From positions 37,735-101,734 of IMG/VR virus record IMGVR_UViG_3300023179_006727: a DNA stretch of 64,000 nt; one strand, 5' to 3'. The notes beneath the pieces are model-generated. The model saw only the letters and a list, made by a program, of their open reading frames with translations, did not search any database and had not been told where the DNA came from. This document shows, in pieces, positions 30,611 to 60,220 of the stretch. Within the stretch, counting starts at the first letter, position 1. Each line of letters begins with the position of its first letter. This DNA comes from a virus. A program made the position numbers and the translations under genes.

Positions 30611-31255
30611 ATGGCATATTTACGTGAACATCTAACTTTTGACAGAGCGGGATTAATTGTTGAATCTGTTAAAGAGGGTGATGAAAAAGTTAAAGCACTT
30701 TATATGAAGGGTATTTTCATACAAGGTGGCGTAAAGAATGCTAATGAACGTGTTTATCCTGTAGATGAAATTGAACGTGCAGTAGAAACATTAAACGGGC
30801 AAATTAGTGAGGGATACAGTGTTTTAGGTGAAGTAGATCATCCTGATGATTTAAAGATAAACTTAGATCGTGTATCCCACATGATAGTCAATATGTGGAT
30901 GGATGGTCCTAATGGGTATGGAAAGTTAAAAATTTTACCTACACCGATGGGAAATCTTGTTTCTACGATGTTAGAGAGTGGAGTGAAGTTAGGTGTATCT
31001 AGTCGTGGTAGTGGAAATGTCAATGACATGAATGGACGTGTTAGTGATTTTGAAATTGTAACGGTTGATATAGTAGCACAGCCAAGTGCACCGAATGCAT
31101 ATCCAAAAGCTATCTATGAAGGATTAAGGAACATGAAGGGTGGTAATCGTGTTTTAGAGAATTTAAAGGATAGTAAACTAGACAAGGATGCACAAGTTCA
31201 AAAGTATTTAAAAGAGTCGGTAGTTAACCTTATTAAGGAGTTGAAATTAAAATGA
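30611..31255 (+). CDS. gp21: Prohead protease
   Basis: GIFIQG..KNANERVY, GEVDHP, VSH, LPTPMG, GVSSRG.G, DIVAQPSAPNA. Confidence 0.95.
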   Translation: MAYLREHLTFDRAGLIVESVKEGDEKVKALYMKGIFIQGGVKNANERVYPVDEIERAVETLNGQISEGYSVLGEVDHPDDLKINLDRVSHMIVNMWMDGPNGYGKLKILPTPMGNLVSTMLESGVKLGVSSRGSGNVNDMNGRVSDFEIVTVDIVAQPSAPNAYPKAIYEGLRNMKGGNRVLENLKDSKLDKDAQVQKYLKESVVNLIKELKLK

Positions 31256-31321
31256 TTTCAACTTTAATAATACCCGTGAGTTCGGGGTTAAACGGACTAA
31301 CCAATAAAGGGGAACATACAA

Positions 31322-32422
31322 ATGTTTGATGCTATTAAGCCATTGCTTGATAACGGAATCATTAATGAAGACACAGGTCGTGCTATAAACGAGGCTTGGG
31401 AGTCAAAATTGAATGAGGCACGTGAGCAAGTACGTGCTGAATTGCGTGAAGAATACGCAAGAAAGTACGAGCATGATAAAAATGTAATGGTTGAAGCCCT
31501 TGACAAGATGGTATCAGTAGGCTTACAAGCTGAGATTGCTGAATTTCATGAAGAGCGTAAAGCTATGAATGAGGACAGAGTAAAAGCAAAAGTTGCTTTA
31601 CGTGAGAATGCACGTAAGTTCAATGATTTTATGGTAACAAAATTAGCAGAAGAAATCAAGGAATTACGTTCTGATCGTCAAACTCAGATGGAAGGTCGTC
31701 AAAAATTAGAGCAGTTTGTTGTACATGCACTTGCACGTGAAATTAAAGAATTTAGTGAAGATAAAAAACAAGTTGTAGAAGCTAAGGTTAAGTTAGTGGC
31801 TGAAGCAAGAAAGCAACTTGAAGCATTAAAAGCAAAATTTATTTCAGAAAGTGCTAAACGTGTCAACGAAAGTGTTACTAAACATCTTAAGGGTGAAATT
31901 AGTCAATTAAAAGAAGATATCAAAGTTGCCACAGAAAACAATTTTGGTCGTCGTCTATTTGAAGCATTTGCTACAGAATTTAGTGCAACGCATCTTAATG
32001 AGAAAGCAGAAACACGTAAATTATTGTCACAAATTGTAGAAAAAGACAAAAAATTGGCTGAGTCCATTGCTGAAGTTAAGAAAGCTAAAACTTTAGTTGA
32101 GAGTAAAGAGCGTGAAGTTCGCATTATTAAGGAAAGTAATCTTCGTGAAAAGGCCATGACAGAATTGTTAGGTACATTAAATGAGGAAAAAGCTAGCGTA
32201 ATGAAGGGCTTGCTCGAAAGTGTGCAGACAAGTAAGCTAAAGTCTGCATATGATAAGTATTTGCCTGCTGTACTAAATCATGGAACAGAAAAACCTACTG
32301 TAAAAAAGCAAGTAATTTCTGAAAGTGTAGTAACAGGTAATAAAACTGCCGTTAAACAAGATGTTGAAGTCGAAGAAGAACGTGATAACGTCATTGCGAT
32401 CAAACGTTTGGCAGGGCTTTAA
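31322..32422 (+). CDS. gp22: Prohead core scaffold protein
   Basis: Coiled-coil, Glu/Lys-rich; between protease and capsid genes. Confidence 0.8.
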   Translation: MFDAIKPLLDNGIINEDTGRAINEAWESKLNEAREQVRAELREEYARKYEHDKNVMVEALDKMVSVGLQAEIAEFHEERKAMNEDRVKAKVALRENARKFNDFMVTKLAEEIKELRSDRQTQMEGRQKLEQFVVHALAREIKEFSEDKKQVVEAKVKLVAEARKQLEALKAKFISESAKRVNESVTKHLKGEISQLKEDIKVATENNFGRRLFEAFATEFSATHLNEKAETRKLLSQIVEKDKKLAESIAEVKKAKTLVESKEREVRIIKESNLREKAMTELLGTLNEEKASVMKGLLESVQTSKLKSAYDKYLPAVLNHGTEKPTVKKQVISESVVTGNKTAVKQDVEVEEERDNVIAIKRLAGL

Positions 32423-32450
32423 TTTGACATATTACAGGAGATAAGAAAAA

Positions 32451-33662
32451 ATGTCTAAAGTATTATTAGAGAGCCGTTGGGGTGAAACAAAAGAAGCCCT
32501 TCTAGAAGGTCTCAAAGGAACTCGTCGTTCAACAATGGGTGTCATTCTTGAAAACACTCGCAAGCAGTTACTTGCTGAATCTTCAGCAGGTACAACTACA
32601 GCAGGTAACATTGCAACACTTAATCGTGTTATTCTTCCCGTTATCCGCCGTGTTATGCCAACCGTTATTGCTAATGAGTTGGTTGGTGTTCAGCCCATGA
32701 CAGGACCCGTAGGTCAAATTCATACACTACGTGTTCGTTATGCAAATAATATGAACGATACAAGCGCAGCACAAACAAGTGTTGTTGCAGGTGAAGAAGC
32801 ATTGTCACCATTCAAGATTGCTCAAGCATATTCTTCAGCAAGTAGTACAACTGCAGGTGTGGTTAACACAAACCAAACACGTTATACTGCGGCAGATACA
32901 AGTGTTCTTGAAGGTAGTGGTGGTCGTCAAATCAGCGTACAGATCTTACGTCAGGCTGTTGAAGCTAAGTCACGTAAGTTACAAGCACGTTGGACATTTG
33001 AGGCTGCACAAGATGCACAGTCACAGCATGGCATTGATGTTGAAGCTGAAATCATGGCAGCACTTGCGCAAGAAATTACTGCTGAAATTGATCAAGAAAT
33101 TCTCTTATCATTACGCAGTCTTGCAGCTACAGAATTCACATACAATCAAGCAACCGTTTCAGGTACAGCTACATTTGTAGGTGATGAGCATGCAGCATTA
33201 GCAGTATTAATTAATCGTGTTGCCAATTTAATTGCTCAGCGTACACGTCGTGGTGCAGGTAATTGGGCAGTTGTTTCAAGCGAGAGTTTAACAATTCTCC
33301 AAAGTGCAACAACATCAGCATTTGCACGTACTACAGAGGGTACTTTTGAAGCACCAACAAATACAAAATTAGTTGGTACATTAAATAATGCAATGCGTGT
33401 TTTTGTTGATAGCTATGCTCCAACAGGTACAGCAGTTCTTGTTGGTTATAAAGGTTCAAGTGAAACAGATGCAGCAGCATTCTATTGCCCATATATTCCA
33501 TTAATGAGCAGTGGTGTTGTTTTAGATCCAACAACATTCGAACCCGTAGTCTCGTTCATGACTCGTTATGGATATATCGAGTTAACGAATACAGCATCAT
33601 CATTTGGTAATGCTGCTGACTATGTTGGTGAAATTGCTGTTCAAAATGTAAGTTTTCAGTAA
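32451..33662 (+). CDS. gp23: Major capsid protein
   Basis: RRVMP..IANELVGVQPMTGP.G, AKSRKLQARWT.E.AQD, AEIDQEI, FYCPYIPL, FMTRYG; GGAG RBS. Confidence 0.97.
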   Translation: MSKVLLESRWGETKEALLEGLKGTRRSTMGVILENTRKQLLAESSAGTTTAGNIATLNRVILPVIRRVMPTVIANELVGVQPMTGPVGQIHTLRVRYANNMNDTSAAQTSVVAGEEALSPFKIAQAYSSASSTTAGVVNTNQTRYTAADTSVLEGSGGRQISVQILRQAVEAKSRKLQARWTFEAAQDAQSQHGIDVEAEIMAALAQEITAEIDQEILLSLRSLAATEFTYNQATVSGTATFVGDEHAALAVLINRVANLIAQRTRRGAGNWAVVSSESLTILQSATTSAFARTTEGTFEAPTNTKLVGTLNNAMRVFVDSYAPTGTAVLVGYKGSSETDAAAFYCPYIPLMSSGVVLDPTTFEPVVSFMTRYGYIELTNTASSFGNAADYVGEIAVQNVSFQ

Positions 33663-33730
33663 AATCAGTTATTTACAAAATTTTTTGAAAATAACTTACC
33701 AACAAAAGGGGCACGAAAGTGCCCTTTTTT
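33654..33730 (+). repeat. 77-bp direct repeat copy 1 (last capsid codons, stop codon and terminator)
   Basis: Identical to 35358-35434. Confidence 0.95.
33704..33730 (+). terminator. Rho-independent terminator after the capsid gene (duplicated at 35408-35435)
   Basis: GGGCAC-GAAA-GTGCCC followed by T6. Confidence 0.9.
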
Positions 33731-33774
33731 ATTGACATTTTTTCTAAAAAACGATATATACATCTTTAATTCAA

Positions 33775-35319
33775 ATGTTATTGGATCAAGATATGAAAGA
33801 TAAAATTGTAGAAATTGTTGAGAAATACTCCAAGCATTACGTTAGGATGATTAAAAACAGAGAAGAATTAATGACATGGGTAGTGACTCATAGCAAAGTT
33901 AGTAGTGATGATATTGGGTTACTAATTTATAGTGCATTAAATGATGTTAGTAATGTGTGTCCATATGGCAAGGAAAAAAAGTTTGGTGGACTTTCAGTAG
34001 GTTTGCGCAATTGCGGATCATCTAAAGTTTGCCAATGTACACGTGAGCAAGTATCAAAATCGGTAATTCAAACTAAAAAAACGATTACTGAAGAACAACA
34101 AAAAAAAATTAATATAAAAAGGGCAAAAACTAATTTAGAAAAATATGGTGTTGAAAATATTGGACAAACAAATTTGGCTAAATTAAAGCATCGTGAATTT
34201 TATTTGACCCATGAAAATAAGAAAAATACCATTGAGTCAAAAAGCGCAAAACAGATTGGATATGAAAAGTTTAAAGGTTATATAGATAAACAATACAATT
34301 TTAAACTTTTGACCACTTTAGAAGAATATCGGGGTATACGTCAAAAAGATGCCTATGAGTACTTATTTCAGTGTAACATTTGTAAAGATATAGTATCATA
34401 TCGATTCTATCATAAACGAGGTATTACTTGTGACAAATGTAATCCTAAAAAACCTTTATATACAAGTCATGAAGAACAATCGATTTTTGATTATATAACA
34501 CAGGATTTAAAAGTTAATGGTGTACAAAGTGACAAAAAGCTTATAAATCCGTATGAATTAGATATGGTATTTCATGAATATAAAATTGCTATTGAATATT
34601 GTGGATTATATTGGCATAGTGAATTAAGTTCAGGAAAGCATAGAAACTATCATAAAACCAAAATGGAATTAGTCAATGAGTTAGGATACAGATTAATTAC
34701 TATCTTTTCCGATGAATGGTTAAACAAAAAAGAAATTGTTAAGAAAAGATTACAGCATATTTTCAACAAAAGTACAAGTAAGCAGTATGCAAGAAATTTA
34801 AAGGTTGTTGAGATAACAAACACAGACGCAAAGTCCTTTTTAAATCAATATCACATTCAAGGTTATACGATTGCTCCAATAAAATTGGGATTAGTAGACA
34901 ATTATGGAAAATTATTTGCTTTGATGACGTTTTCAAAAGGTAGAGCATCATTAAATTCAAGTGATGAATACGAATTAGTACGCTATGTGACAAATGGGAC
35001 AGTTGTTGGGGGTGCAGGAAAGTTATTGAAATATTTTACGAAGCTTTACAATCCTAAAAAAATAGCTACTTATGCTGATTTACGTTGGAGTCAGGGTAAT
35101 TTATATAAGGTGTTAGGTTTTAATAGAGTTGGTGATGCAAAAGTTGGATATTGGTACGTTGAAAATTATAATAAAAGATTGCATCGATATAATTTTACTA
35201 AGCATAAGTTAGTTAGAATGGGAGCAAATTCATTACTTACAGAATGGAAAATAATGCAAAATTTAAATTATGACCGAATTTGGGATTGCGGTCATCAAAA
35301 ATTTGAATTAATATTATAA
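33775..35319 (+). CDS. Free-standing homing endonuclease, Hef-like PD-(D/E)XK
   Basis: NLEKYGVEN motif; zinc ribbon CNIC..CDKC; YELD......IAIEYCGLYWHS; FLNQYHIQG; YELVRY; YADLRWS.GNLY; IWDCG. Confidence 0.78.
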   Translation: MLLDQDMKDKIVEIVEKYSKHYVRMIKNREELMTWVVTHSKVSSDDIGLLIYSALNDVSNVCPYGKEKKFGGLSVGLRNCGSSKVCQCTREQVSKSVIQTKKTITEEQQKKINIKRAKTNLEKYGVENIGQTNLAKLKHREFYLTHENKKNTIESKSAKQIGYEKFKGYIDKQYNFKLLTTLEEYRGIRQKDAYEYLFQCNICKDIVSYRFYHKRGITCDKCNPKKPLYTSHEEQSIFDYITQDLKVNGVQSDKKLINPYELDMVFHEYKIAIEYCGLYWHSELSSGKHRNYHKTKMELVNELGYRLITIFSDEWLNKKEIVKKRLQHIFNKSTSKQYARNLKVVEITNTDAKSFLNQYHIQGYTIAPIKLGLVDNYGKLFALMTFSKGRASLNSSDEYELVRYVTNGTVVGGAGKLLKYFTKLYNPKKIATYADLRWSQGNLYKVLGFNRVGDAKVGYWYVENYNKRLHRYNFTKHKLVRMGANSLLTEWKIMQNLNYDRIWDCGHQKFELIL

Positions 35320-35357
35320 CGATTTGAAGTTTTTCAATTTATCATATGGATATATCA

Positions 35358-35434
35358 TTTCAGTAAAATCAGTTATTTACAAAATTTTTTGAAAATAACT
35401 TACCAACAAAAGGGGCACGAAAGTGCCCTTTTTT
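35358..35434 (+). repeat. 77-bp direct repeat copy 2, preceded by a 12-bp capsid remnant
   Basis: Identical to 33654-33730. TATGGATATATC at 35345-35356 equals capsid 33567-33578. Confidence 0.95.
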
Positions 35435-35537
35435 TAATTTTAGTATTTTAAGAATAAAATTTATTTCTAATTATTGAAACAGTTTATATTTAAAAATAAA
35501 TAAATAATTAGAGAATGTTAATATTTTGGGGATAAAA

Positions 35538-36131
35538 ATGGCAGAATGGGTATTAGTTGAAAATAATGAAATTATTGAATATCATGATAAATTGCCTAGG
35601 AATTGGAGAAATATTTCGGGATTACATCTGTCTATTAATGATACAGTTTTTTTAAAATCTTTAGGTTGGTTCAAGGTACAAAAAATTGCTTTGGATAATG
35701 GGCAAGTGGTATCTCATTATGATTATTCAATTTGTGATGATTATGTTTTAGAAACTCCTATTTATAAAATTTTTTCTGCAGAAGACAATTACAATATACA
35801 ACAGCATGATTTAAATCTTTTATTAGAATATGTTAGATCTGAACGTAATAAAAAATTGTTAGAATCAGATTATACACAATTAACAGATGTTATTGAAAAA
35901 CATACAGATAATGAAAAATTAGCATGGAAAACTTATAGACAAGCTTTACGTGATTTTCCTGCCACAGTACATATTGGAAATAATGTACAGAATTTGAATT
36001 GGCCTAATTTTGATAATATTCTTTTAGATTTAGAGATTAATGTTCAAAATGAGATTATTATTCAAGAAAGTATAGAAGAAAATATTCAAAATGCAGAAAA
36101 TAATCAAGAAAGTATAGAGTCTAGTATTTGA
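35538..36131 (+). CDS. Tail fibre assembly chaperone-like protein
   Basis: VRSERNKKLLESDYTQLTD...AWKTYRQALRDFP...NWP. ATG start (MAEW) preferred over TTG. Confidence 0.72.
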   Translation: MAEWVLVENNEIIEYHDKLPRNWRNISGLHLSINDTVFLKSLGWFKVQKIALDNGQVVSHYDYSICDDYVLETPIYKIFSAEDNYNIQQHDLNLLLEYVRSERNKKLLESDYTQLTDVIEKHTDNEKLAWKTYRQALRDFPATVHIGNNVQNLNWPNFDNILLDLEINVQNEIIIQESIEENIQNAENNQESIESSI

Positions 36132-36154
36132 AAAAAAATGAGTATAAATACTAA

Positions 36155-39100
36155 ATGTTATTAGCTACCTTAATACAAACAGGAACATATTTTCCTCCTG
36201 CCCCAGGTAAGCTCTTATACCTTTGGGGCAATAACACTTATGGACAATTAGGTGATGGTACTACAGTAAGTAAATCATCACCTGTTTTAGTTCCTACTTC
36301 ATCATGGAAACAAGTATCGGTTAATAGATTTTACACCGCTGCTATTCGTTCTGATAATTTATTGTTTGCTTGGGGTAGAAATAATTATGGACAGTTAGGA
36401 GATGGCACAACAGTAAACAAGTCATCACCTGTACAAATTGGTTCTTCACAATGGAAATCAGTTTCGGTTGCTACATCTAATACTACTGCGATTGATAATA
36501 ATAATAATTTGTTTATATGGGGAGCAGGTGTATCTGTAGGTGATAATTATTTTTTAATCCCTTATAAAATAAAGCAACCATCGGGTTCAACATATATTGA
36601 TTCTAGTTGGACAATGGTTAGTGTTGGTCCTTCCCATACTGCTGCTATTCGTTCTGATGGAATATTATTTACGTGGGGGTTCAATAACAATGGACAATTA
36701 GGTGACGGAACTACGGTAACTCGAACTTACCCAACTCAAATTGGCAATTTAAGTTGGAACATGGTAAGTGCAGGTGGATTACCTTCTAATAGCACTGAGT
36801 ACACATTAGGTATAACAAGTAATGGGTTACTTTATTCTTGGGGATATGGTGGTAATGGTGCTACAGCAGATGGTGATTTTTATAATCCAAATGTTATCAA
36901 ATTTCAAGTGGGAACAAGCTATATAGATTATAGTTGGACAGCCTTATCTTCAAGGGGTTCTAATTTTGTTCTTGCAGTTAGAAATGATGGACTGTTATTT
37001 TCTTGGGGCAGAAATCAATATGGTCAATTAGGTGATGGTACTACTGTTAATAAATCTACTCCTGTTCAAATTGGTAGTAGTAGTTGGATAGCTGTATCAA
37101 CAGGATCTCTACATGCCTTAGCTATACGCAGTGGTGGAACATTATTTTCTTGGGGCAGAAATAATTATGGACAGTTAGGAGATAGTACTACTGTTAATAA
37201 ATCATCACCTGTACAGATTGGTAGTAGTAGTTGGACAACTATTAGTGCATATGGTACTGTTAGTACAGGTATTAGTAACAATAATCTTTTTGTATGGGGA
37301 TTTAACGGCACGGGGTTTCGTTTGGGTTTAGGTGATGGCACAACAACAAATAGATCATCCCCCGTTCAAATCGGAGATCCTGCGATAAGTTGGCAAACTG
37401 CAGTTGCAGGTGGATATCAATCAGCGACATTGAATTCTACCAATCTATTATATACATGGGGTAGAAATAATCGAGGTCAATTAGGTAGCGGCTCTACAGT
37501 TAATAGATCATCCCTTGTACAAGTTGGTGGTAGTAGTTGGACAGCTTTAAGTATGGGCATGAGTCATACTGTAGGTATTCGTTCAGATGGAATATTATTT
37601 GCTTGGGGATTAAATAATTTTGGACAATTAGGAGATGGTACTGGAATTAGTAGATCTTCCCCTGTACAAATTGGTAGTAGTAGTTGGATTGCTGTACGTG
37701 CAGGATCATATCACACTGTTGCAATAAGAAGTGGTGGAACATTATTTACTTGGGGTAGCAATTTTTTATCACAATTGGGAGACGGAAATTCACAAGGTAC
37801 GACTGTGATCTCGCCCGTACAAATTGGTAGCAGTAGTTGGACAGCGATAGCTGCAGGTTCAACTTTTAGTGCAGGTATATCGGATGGATTATTATATGCA
37901 TGGGGATATAATTCAAACGGACAAATTGCAGTAAGTGGTTCAACCCAAATATATAATTGGATAAGTACTAGTTCGGGTACTGATATGCATGCTGCGATTC
38001 GTAGTGATGGTTATTTATTTGCATGGGGTTTAAATTCATATGGTCGATTAGGTGATGGCACGACTATTAATAAATCATCACCTGTACAAATTGGTAGTAG
38101 TAGTTGGATTGCAGTTAGTGTGGGACAAAACTTTACTTCTGCAATACAAAGTGGTGGTACATTATTTACATGGGGGAGAAATACTTTTGGGCAATTAGGT
38201 GATGGTACTACAGTCGATAAATCATCACCTGTACAAATTGGTAGCAGTAGTTGGACAAGCGTTGCAGCAGGTGGTAGTCATGTTGTTGCAATTCGTTCTG
38301 ATGGTTTATTATTTGCTTGGGGTAACAATAATTTAGGACGATTGGGTGATGGTACTACTGTTAATAAATCATCTCCCGTACAAATTGGTAGTAGTAGTTG
38401 GACTGCGGTATCAGGCGGAAGAAATCATACAATTGCTATTAGAAGCGGCGGAACATTGTTCGGATGGGGGGATGGAACTTTTGGACAATTAGGATACGGA
38501 TCTACACTTAGGTTAGAACCAGGTCTTCTTAGTTACCCGCAAGACACAGCAAGTTGGACAAGCGTTGCATCAGGTGCTAGTCATGTTGTTGCAATTCGTT
38601 CTGATGGTTTATTATTTGCTTGGGGTAACAATAATTATGGACAATTAGGTGATGGCACAAATATAACCCGTAGTGTTCCAACACAAATCGGCAATGATAG
38701 TTGGACTGTAATCGGGGCGGGTCGAAGAATATCAGCAGGAATTAATAGTAACGGTATAGTATATACGTGGGGATATAATACTAACGGTGAGTTAGGAAGT
38801 GGTGATACAACAAGTAGGAACGCTCCTGGAACACTTGCGTCAGGATTTAATAGTAGATCCGCAACAAGATTAGGAGTCGGAGCTAATCATATGATGGCAT
38901 ACTTTCCTACACTAGGTGATGTTTACGGTTGGGGAGTTGGCTTTAATGGGCAATTGGGAACAGGAAGTAGTGGCATTACCTATCGCCTATCAACACCTAC
39001 GCTCTTAGGTTTAGGTGGGGGTGAACCCCAAAAAATTTCATTAGGTGATCGTTTCTCATTAGTTTTAATTAGTAATGGTACTTTATTTGGAACAGGTTTA

Positions 39101-59875: not shown

Positions 59876-60220
59876 TTATATTGTTACTTCACTTATATCA
59901 ACAGTAGTATCGACTGTTAACTCATATTCATCATAATTTTTTTGTTTTAAATTTTGTAATCTTAAACGATTACAATTAGCACAGAGAGTAGTAAAATTAT
60001 TATTTACAATAACTAAATCTAATTGACACATGTGCTTTGCTATAAATCCACAAGATTCACATGATTTTCTTTTTTTCGGTCGTTTCCTGTATTTCTTACT
60101 ATCGCAACTACTGCAATACTTGCGCCATTTTGTAAATCCATTAACACTAGTCCCACTTTTTCTTGATGGTCTTAATTTACACCCTATACAAATAGGTCGT
60201 TTTAAACTTTTTGTTAACAT
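59876..60220 (-). CDS. Zinc-finger protein with degenerate HNH-like domain
   Basis: Four CxxC pairs (CIGC, CSSC, CESC, CANC). The start may be 60220 or 60226. Confidence 0.65.
   Translation of the reverse strand: MLTKSLKRPICIGCKLRPSRKSGTSVNGFTKWRKYCSSCDSKKYRKRPKKRKSCESCGFIAKHMCQLDLVIVNNNFTTLCANCNRLRLQNLKQKNYDEYELTVDTTVDISEVTI

Follow-up and report, generated by a model that had tools for sequence, protein, structure and literature searches.

A Hef-like homing endonuclease gene between two copies of a capsid gene end in a freshwater T4-like phage: a probable scar of one-sided break repair

Introduction

Free-standing homing endonucleases are thought to shape DNA exchange among phages, and their genes cluster beside essential genes, e.g., near those for the capsid (Barth et al., PMC10448857). 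In an uncultured freshwater T4-like phage (IMG/VR record IMGVR_UViG_3300023179_006727; 101,734 nt, or 101.7 kb), a gene of this kind, resembling Hef, stands directly behind the major capsid protein gene, and past it the 3′ end and terminator of the capsid gene occur a second time. How did an endonuclease gene come to lie between two identical copies of the end of its neighbor? We analyzed positions 37,735-101,734 of the record, a stretch of 64,000 nt hereafter called the window, whose numbering is used for all coordinates. The repeat is probably the scar of one-sided break repair at the capsid 3′ end, templated by a Hef-bearing genome. An earlier note on the window had drawn attention to the locus, and its claims are taken up where results bear on them. 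The features on which the argument turns are as follows.

32451-33662, + strand: major capsid protein gene (T4 gp23 family), intact, 403 amino acids (aa); the likely target gene
33567-33578, + strand: TATGGATATATC within the capsid gene, Y-G-Y-I codons of the conserved TRYGYIELTN segment
33654-33730, + strand: repeat copy 1, comprising capsid end, AT-rich hairpin, and intrinsic terminator; working end of the capsid gene
33667-33696: AT-rich hairpin in copy 1
33705-33728: terminator in copy 1, GGGGCAC-GAAA-GTGCCCC followed by a T run
33732-33760, + strand: promoter-like TTGACA-17 nt-TATATA, after terminator 1 and before Hef, outside the repeat
33775-35319, + strand: Hef-like (Vsr/EDxHD) free-standing homing endonuclease gene, longest open reading frame (ORF) 514 aa
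35345-35356, + strand: TATGGATATATC again, a capsid-derived 12-nt fragment; left edge of the putatively stranded second capsid end
35358-35434, + strand: repeat copy 2, a non-coding second capsid end with terminator (35408-35433)

The Second Copy Is a Piece of the Capsid Gene

The two copies of the direct repeat are identical at 77/77 bp and spaced 1704 bp apart (repeat score z of about 60 vs. shuffled flanks), and they are the only copies of the unit in the whole record. The capsid gene ends ...GTA AGT TTT CAG TAA, and the unit opens with TTT CAG TAA, i.e., with the final two capsid codons and the stop; the earlier description of an exact repeat holding capsid codons, stop, and a GAAA-loop terminator was accurate. 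The unit folds at -26.5 kcal/mol (z of -4.7 vs. shuffled controls). Its terminator stem and loop are identical in one relative (L018), and the order of capsid stop, spacer, and terminator is kept in all relatives.

Copy 2 is preceded by a 12-mer, TATGGATATATC, that in the capsid gene encodes part of a protein segment, TRYGYIELTN, nearly invariant among >80 relatives. A single A (35357) separates the 12-mer from copy 2 and replaces 75 capsid nt (33579-33653). When the 40-nt 3′ flank of Hef was compared with the 300 nt before copy 1, a 12-nt match was equaled in 5/5000 shuffles and by 55/20000 random 40-mers from the window (p of about 0.001-0.003), which upholds the earlier assignment of the 12-mer to the YGYI codons. 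The region of copy 2 resembles 164 bp copied from the capsid end, with 75 nt swapped for one. Because it carries capsid codons and a collinear 12-mer, copy 2 is a piece of the capsid gene and not a generic terminator. That it came from the capsid 3′ end, and that the duplication kept the capsid C-terminus whole, had both been proposed in the earlier note, and both proposals stand. Copy 2 is now predicted to terminate the endonuclease transcript, and it may serve as a right-hand homology arm. An intron-like reading of 33579-35357 was ruled out: excision would yield a truncated, frame-shifted capsid C-terminus unlike that of all relatives, and no ribozyme was found: an Rfam scan of 33500-35600 gave no family at gathering score, hence no group I intron.

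The Gene Between the Copies

The ORF begins 113 nt past the capsid stop and ends 38 nt before copy 2; a conserved Hef start, MKDKI, lies at 33793, 131 nt past the stop, and gives a protein of 508 aa. It matches phrog_3339, "homing endonuclease" (1.8e-99), and PHROG 559. By tblastn, 34% identity over 99% of the length was found to Hef-like genes of Pseudomonas, Klebsiella, Bacillus, and Campylobacter phages; the PA5oct "Hef-like homing endonuclease" was matched at 34.5% identity over 99% of the length, and a Campylobacter phage "Hef" was also matched. Residues E261, D263, H281, and D313 are invariant in a 23-member alignment of the window Hef and 22 relatives, and the profile of the family alignment matches PDB 3r3p, the catalytic domain of I-Bth0305I (E 3.8e-7). 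Pfam MTES_1575 reached 25.1 bits on the protein, under its cut-off of 38.2. The PHROG match, the catalytic residues, and the 3r3p match together confirm the Hef-like identity that had been suggested. Hef-type enzymes were placed in the Vsr-like "EDxHD" family by Taylor et al. (PMC3239194), and the window Hef shares this family, whose prototype is I-Bth0305I, with the U5 Hef by profile and catalytic residues (PMC2988022; PMC3239194). As judged from its sequence, the ORF is an intact free-standing homing endonuclease gene, neither intron- nor intein-borne. As the earlier note had stated, there is no integrase among the neighbors scanned, i.e., the three genes upstream including the capsid gene, Hef itself, and one gene downstream.

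The promoter-like site ahead of Hef was read by eye; a simple promoter scan did not list 33732-33760, its -10 box being non-canonical. The homologous stretch in relatives L097 and L086 reads TTGACA ... TATAAATA.

A side observation concerns the C-terminal part of the family. In one Hef relative (P0025), residues from about 390 to 530 match the Pfam "Mom protein family" PF25680 (32.9 bits, cut-off 27.1), and the same region of another (P0023) reaches 26.1 bits, just under the cut-off. This region corresponds to residues of about 340-510 of the window Hef, and the middle regions of some Hef-like proteins match DUF7487. For the part of Hef presumed to bind DNA, a relation in fold to Mom would be unexpected.

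Empty and Differently Filled Relatives

The capsid protein of the window matches Pfam Gp23 (1.9e-98) and phrog_138 (3.9e-99) and is 78-98.5% identical to the capsids of >85 related viral contigs. Four of these contigs, with three distinct sequences (L092, identical here to L093; L095; L096), have capsids 98.5% identical to that of the window at the protein level, and about 88% at the DNA level, and carry an empty site: capsid stop, short spacer, one terminator, and then genes that differ in each contig. Compared with these alleles, the Hef cassette is an insertion, as had been claimed. The differently filled form is represented by a single sequence found under three labels (L086, L097, and L170), in which a 66%-identical Hef occupies the same position with a homologous TTGACA box and leader, followed by other downstream genes. 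The empty and filled alleles therefore share homology on the capsid side only. The spacer is unalignable even among relatives with 98.5%-identical capsids.

The same asymmetry appears on a larger scale. More distant relatives (L006, L007, L010, L013, and L034) have a conserved 121-aa minus-strand gene, located at 59894-60220 in the window, 1-4 kb past the capsid terminator, where the window has about 26 kb of lineage-specific DNA (33663-59890), including a giant RCC1-repeat gene. By this comparison Hef sits exactly at the border between the highly conserved capsid gene and a hypervariable block, and a break in the capsid end would find homology on one side only.

The capsid gene itself varies in its affinities. 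Over its last 300 nt, similarity to the Hef-bearing relative (0.91-0.92) exceeds that to the empty ones (0.85-0.90), and positions 32443-32741 are nearest to an empty relative, L092 (0.94-0.96). This shift would fit co-conversion of the flank together with Hef. A codon signature (Ser TCG/AGC and Thr ACG) seen in the closest five sequences was dropped, as it fails in the wider set.

The Capsid 3′ Flank as a Recurrent Endonuclease Site

Hef genes recur behind capsid genes. At least 25 of 84 Hef loci in viral contigs lie directly behind a gp23-type capsid gene, in the same or convergent orientation, and the capsids concerned range from 98% down to about 30% identity. Other families occupy the same place: among 68 non-redundant relatives whose contigs extend far enough downstream, the capsid terminator is followed first by a gene for an HNH endonuclease in 15 and for a GIY-YIG endonuclease in 10. 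From this recurrence of Hef, HNH, and GIY-YIG genes it follows that the capsid 3′ end is a recurrent endonuclease target. At the protein level, the C-terminal capsid segment GVVLDP.TFEPVVSFMTRYGYIELTNT hardly varies, and this is the kind of sequence that homing endonucleases target.

One further Hef-like locus has a flank duplication. In L244, the gene is bracketed by an 87-nt duplication of about 85% identity (1019-1105 and 2867-2954), and what has been duplicated is the leader and 5′ end of a neighboring gene on the minus strand (MTQRDPVAKK...), which lies downstream of a gene for a MoxR-like ATPase. The ATG is retained only in the copy that forms the true start of this gene; the other copy is decapitated. 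This duplication beside a Hef-like gene would fit an origin by break repair. A capsid-like 22-mer after Hef in L173 was dismissed as a remnant since it lies inside an unrelated ORF.

Capsid pieces also occur in another setting. In the HNH and GIY-YIG relatives, the start codon of the endonuclease gene is preceded by an ATAAATA box resembling a late promoter, and immediately 5′ of that box stands a copy, 15-30 nt long, of a defined segment from the capsid 3′ coding region. In the HNH set (L024, L029, L041, L057, L069, L073, and L078) the piece corresponds to the (Y-G-Y-)I-E-L-T-N codons, in a GIY-YIG set (L025, L042, L050, L052, L058, L015, and L063) to the (D-Y-L-)G-E-I-A-V-Q/S-N codons, and in a second GIY-YIG group (L019 and L034) to the N-A-A-D-Y codons. 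When the 45 nt before the endonuclease start were compared with all capsid ends, 0/100 shuffles scored as well in most loci. The operator of I-TevI is identical to its own homing site at 15/20 positions and overlaps a late promoter (PMC2988022); the capsid-like boxes may be operators of this type, or else insertion scars. A search ahead of the Hef start, in the window and in L097, gave no capsid-like fragment (p of about 0.8).

The Arg codon of the TRYGY segment (33564-33566 in the window) is AGA or AGG and not CGN in 11 of 25 relatives with an HNH or GIY-YIG gene vs. 2 of 43 without (L004-L083; Fisher p 1.4e-4, uncorrected for relatedness). This excess could be the pattern expected from target-site immunity by synonymous recoding. 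The recoded codon lies exactly where the window remnant begins. The earlier note had placed entry of the element at TRYGY; the start of the remnant and the AGR excess speak for that site, and against it the relatives with the excess carry HNH or GIY-YIG genes, not Hef.

Proposed Origin by One-Sided Break Repair

The sequences show which genes are present, that the site is polymorphic for the insertion, that copy 2 stems from the capsid gene, and that the site is a hotspot; from this we infer a cut site, an order of events, and a present-day role for copy 2, with every mechanistic step read from sequence. The proposed sequence starts from a phage without Hef, in whose conserved capsid 3′ end a double-strand break would have arisen close to the TRYGY codons (at 33567 or upstream of it). 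The broken end on the capsid side would have invaded a genome with Hef, and synthesis on that template would have added the donor's capsid end, terminator, promoter, and Hef. As the DNA beyond Hef would have had no homology to the recipient, the new strand would have been joined illegitimately to the other broken end, leaving the recipient's own capsid end and terminator stranded downstream as a dead second copy, which would have lost 74 bp later or during the same event. The outcome would be a whole capsid gene, with a terminator retained by each transcription unit. Copy 2 could then supply the cassette with homology on both flanks, so that homing among phages that share this capsid end would not depend on the DNA downstream of it, and the cassette could be deleted by recombination between the copies. 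Loss as a 1704-bp circle, which had been foreseen and of which no instance was observed, is possible, with a precedent in the mini-circles of PeSL cassettes (PMC2839356). The analogy to attL and attR sites that had been drawn for the repeats is misleading, since the layout is better described as a product of double-strand-break repair. On balance, a scar of one-sided break repair from a Hef-bearing genome is the account we consider probable.

Several observations weigh against it. The cut site of Hef is placed by inference. Flank duplications occur in 2 of about 68 Hef loci, and the nearest differently filled relative (L086/L097) has no flanking repeat save an 18-nt resemblance (p of about 0.03). 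No codon difference splits Hef-bearing from Hef-less capsid alleles, and the change in similarity within the capsid gene is modest, this gene being generally mosaic. The junction at 35344/35345 has no evident microhomology. Finally, all 12+77 nt are identical between the copies despite the fast-changing spacer, so either donor and recipient shared the spacer, or the copies were homogenized later. The earlier note had read this identity as a recent event or gene conversion, which is reasonable; repeated homing in which copy 2 pairs with the terminator region of the recipient would also preserve it, renewing the identity at each transfer by the logic of the WHO elements discussed below. A purely local duplication would explain the identity of the copies more simply.

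Alternative Explanations

Such a local duplication, unrelated to homing, would begin with Hef standing behind the terminator, as in L086, after which slippage or unequal sister exchange would have copied the capsid end across the gene, the copy being kept as a terminator of the Hef transcript ahead of the tail-fiber genes. The perfect identity of the copies, fast-evolving spacer included, is what this predicts; the nearest Hef-bearing relative has no repeat, and a second terminator has an obvious use. However, the account requires two illegitimate junctions, a 74-bp loss, and an exact junction from terminator to downstream DNA, and the parallel duplication beside the L244 Hef points to a link with endonuclease activity. 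We regard it as unlikely.

Alternatively, the cassette could have entered by homologous recombination, e.g., from a mini-circle with one terminator module, with no endonuclease-made break in the capsid gene. T4-type phages shuffle genes between stem-loop/promoter cassettes, the PeSLs, and exchange between such repeats can produce indels and mini-circles (Arbiol et al., 2010, PMC2839356; Comeau et al., 2014, PMC4122927). In nearly all relatives the capsid gene is followed by a stereotyped terminator and then by TTGAC, in some (e.g., L025, L029, and L041) a similar terminator also follows the endonuclease gene, and a single crossover with a circle would produce perfectly identical repeats. In one metagenome study (X5, see below), one contig has unrelated sequence ahead of the spacer and terminator (loose end at 33662) and another departs from the window sequence 74 nt past copy 2 (35508), so the terminator module or cassette also stands in other contexts in that lake. 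The window resembles PeSL loci in having a terminator stem-loop and then a sigma-70-like promoter at the edge of a hyperplastic region, but its repeat falls outside the PeSL definition: TTGACA-17-TATATA follows copy 1 only and the unit is without its promoter half, capsid coding sequence is included, and there are two copies only in 101.7 kb, with no other long non-coding repeat family in the window. Moreover, the repeat begins within the capsid reading frame and is preceded by the capsid 12-mer. A circle would therefore need a source genome in which the duplication already existed; recombination of this kind would thus explain spread and not origin. As a full account of the locus it is improbable.

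Assembly Support Across Metagenomes

The earlier note had named a misassembled repeat among the results that would refute its reading. The locus is present in lake, freshwater, and aquaculture metagenomes (at least six studies), and its junctions were followed in Logan contigs (k=31) from four studies, X1, X2, X3, and X5. A 1687-nt Hef contig consists of 1627 unique bases plus 30 nt of repeat at each end (X1; in X2 with four substitutions), the capsid-end contig halts 30 nt inside the repeat, and the downstream contig begins 30 nt ahead of the repeat end. The 77-nt unitig has about twice the depth of its neighbors (60.5 vs. 19-26 in X1; 28.8 vs. 7-15 in X2), and the depth of Hef equals that of its flanks. 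In X5, a 353-nt contig bridges capsid, copy 1, and Hef; in X3, a 1734-nt contig spans copy 1, Hef, and 30 nt of copy 2. The same Hef protein, or one >90% identical, is found on contigs of 101,734, 92,332, and 16,949 nt (JGI/IMG, Logan, or ENA), of which the 92-kb and 17-kb contigs are ENA entries, and also on one of 4,818 nt.

A graph at k=31 cannot tell the integrated form from an empty site plus a circle, and depth ratios are uninformative on an empty-site subpopulation because the empty allele has no k-mer of its own at this k. The long contigs and the equal depth of ORF and flank speak for the integrated form. A joint in X5 from 33691 to 35488 (skipping 1796) was discounted as an empty site, having only 21 nt on one side. 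An assembly artifact, i.e., a repeat-induced misjoin or a separate 1.7-kb circle threaded into the phage contig, could draw on this ambiguity of k=31 graphs, but it is largely refuted and very improbable: the 77-bp repeat is shorter than an ordinary read, Hef lies on the long contigs, the 353-nt contig of X5 runs from capsid through copy 1 into Hef, Hef matches its flanks in depth with the repeat at about twofold in two studies, and the junctions recur in four freshwater studies and are therefore not a misassembly.

Comparison With Known Systems

On the enzyme side, the closest known system is the Hef of phage U5, together with the Hef-like free-standing homing endonucleases. The U5 and window genes are free-standing and lie beside an essential conserved gene, and the window Hef is present or absent among close relatives. 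They differ in that the U5 Hef targets nrdB (PMC2988022), whereas the window Hef sits behind the capsid gene. The Hef literature represented by PMC2988022 and PMC3239194, which leaves aside the original description of Hef, mentions no flanking duplication of a target gene end.

For the repair step, the nearest precedent is one-sided homing in T4, which according to Edgell et al. (2010; PMC2988022), who summarize Parker et al. (1999), is finished by illegitimate repair at microhomologies. As in the origin proposed here, homology would serve on one side and the other side would be joined with little or none. The T4 case concerned the td intron in the laboratory, whereas the window holds a natural free-standing gene fixed in a wild population of several lakes, and the T4 joins use microhomology, whereas the junction in the window has no clear one.

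For the layout, the parallels are fungal. WHO elements at the yeast aldolase gene FBA1 replace the 3′ end of the gene, and the old one persists downstream (Coughlan et al., 2020, PMC7282813). As in the window, an endonuclease gene lies just downstream of an essential target, and behind it stands a non-coding piece of the target's 3′ end; in the window, the 3′-end-replacing layout consists of capsid gene, Hef, and a capsid-end fragment of 12 nt plus 77 nt. In the WHO model, the downstream fragment is the homology arm for homing (PMC7282813). However, the working end and the fragment of WHO loci differ (about 85% identity) and confer resistance, whereas in the window the surviving 89 bases are identical and the informative 75 nt are missing. 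The WHO endonucleases belong to a family, and their hosts to a kingdom, unrelated to those of the window, where cleavage is predicted from sequence. Mobile ORFs of fungal mitochondria that carry a foreign C-terminus (atp6 in Allomyces; atp6, atp9, cox2, and nad3 in Glomus; PMC3630166) likewise show a target end, an endonuclease ORF, and a displaced native C-terminal copy. The fungal ORF is often fused in frame and the C-termini have diverged, whereas in the window the gene stands apart from its neighbor and has a promoter-like site and terminators of its own, and the copies do not differ.

These parallels allow a bolder proposal, which we put forward tentatively, as a possibility. The locus may be a phage counterpart of the yeast WHO elements, a unit of capsid 3′ end with terminator, Hef, and trimmed second capsid end with terminator, in which the downstream copy would be a right-hand homology arm and not debris, giving Hef access to every phage that has this capsid end, although the DNA past it changes from lineage to lineage. 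Through the 74-bp gap, the spare copy would be without the cut site. Several endonuclease families behind the capsid gene might each keep a capsid piece as a homology arm or as an operator (autorepression like that of I-TevI) and may drive synonymous recoding of the TRYGY codons. If true, a portable homology arm would explain the spread of one endonuclease family across phages that share only the capsid gene, and would link phage elements to the WHO/HO story of yeast.

Hef-like enzymes, endonuclease genes by capsid genes, one-sided repair, and 3′-end-replacing elements in fungi are all known already; our literature search found no paper describing this layout in a phage. As it stands, the repeat would be the scar of a known process and not a new mechanism, of a sort rarely described for phages. 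Filled, empty, and differently filled alleles make the locus a clean example from nature of an endonuclease gene settling at the border of conserved and hypervariable DNA, where ordinary two-sided homing cannot work.

Neighboring Genes and Further Observations

The capsid gene belongs to a T4-type head module, and the block behind Hef is hypervariable. The remaining genes of the neighborhood are as follows.

30611-31255: prohead protease gene, T4-type head module
31322-32422: gene in the scaffold position, no known function, T4-type head module
35538-36131, + strand: tail-fiber assembly/chaperone-like gene, first of the hypervariable downstream block (Pfam Phage_tail_APC, 1.1e-14)

The last of these genes has no counterpart behind the capsid gene in any related locus and no relatives in the viral contigs. 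Megablast of 31000-38000 against GenBank phages returned no match, exact-pattern scans of metagenome and viral contigs for the spacer were likewise negative, and a search of JGI metagenome contigs with the Hef protein returned distant relatives only.

Two minor observations concern the capsid flanks of relatives. The motif GGGATGGGAA occurs in the spacer 9-49 nt past the capsid stop in 26 of 75 relatives (L004-L083), and elsewhere in these loci (642 kb) it turns up only 9 times; the window does not have it, and in the one locus compared with Rfam (L007) there was no match. In L196, an 85-nt repeat was ruled out as a target duplication, as it stems from two paralogous endonuclease genes flanking Hef. 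The locus (L196:2610-5660) is a three-gene endonuclease island directly after the capsid gene, with the Hef-like gene between two paralogous nucleases that carry repeated GYKLLSTEYKNA... zinc-finger-like modules.

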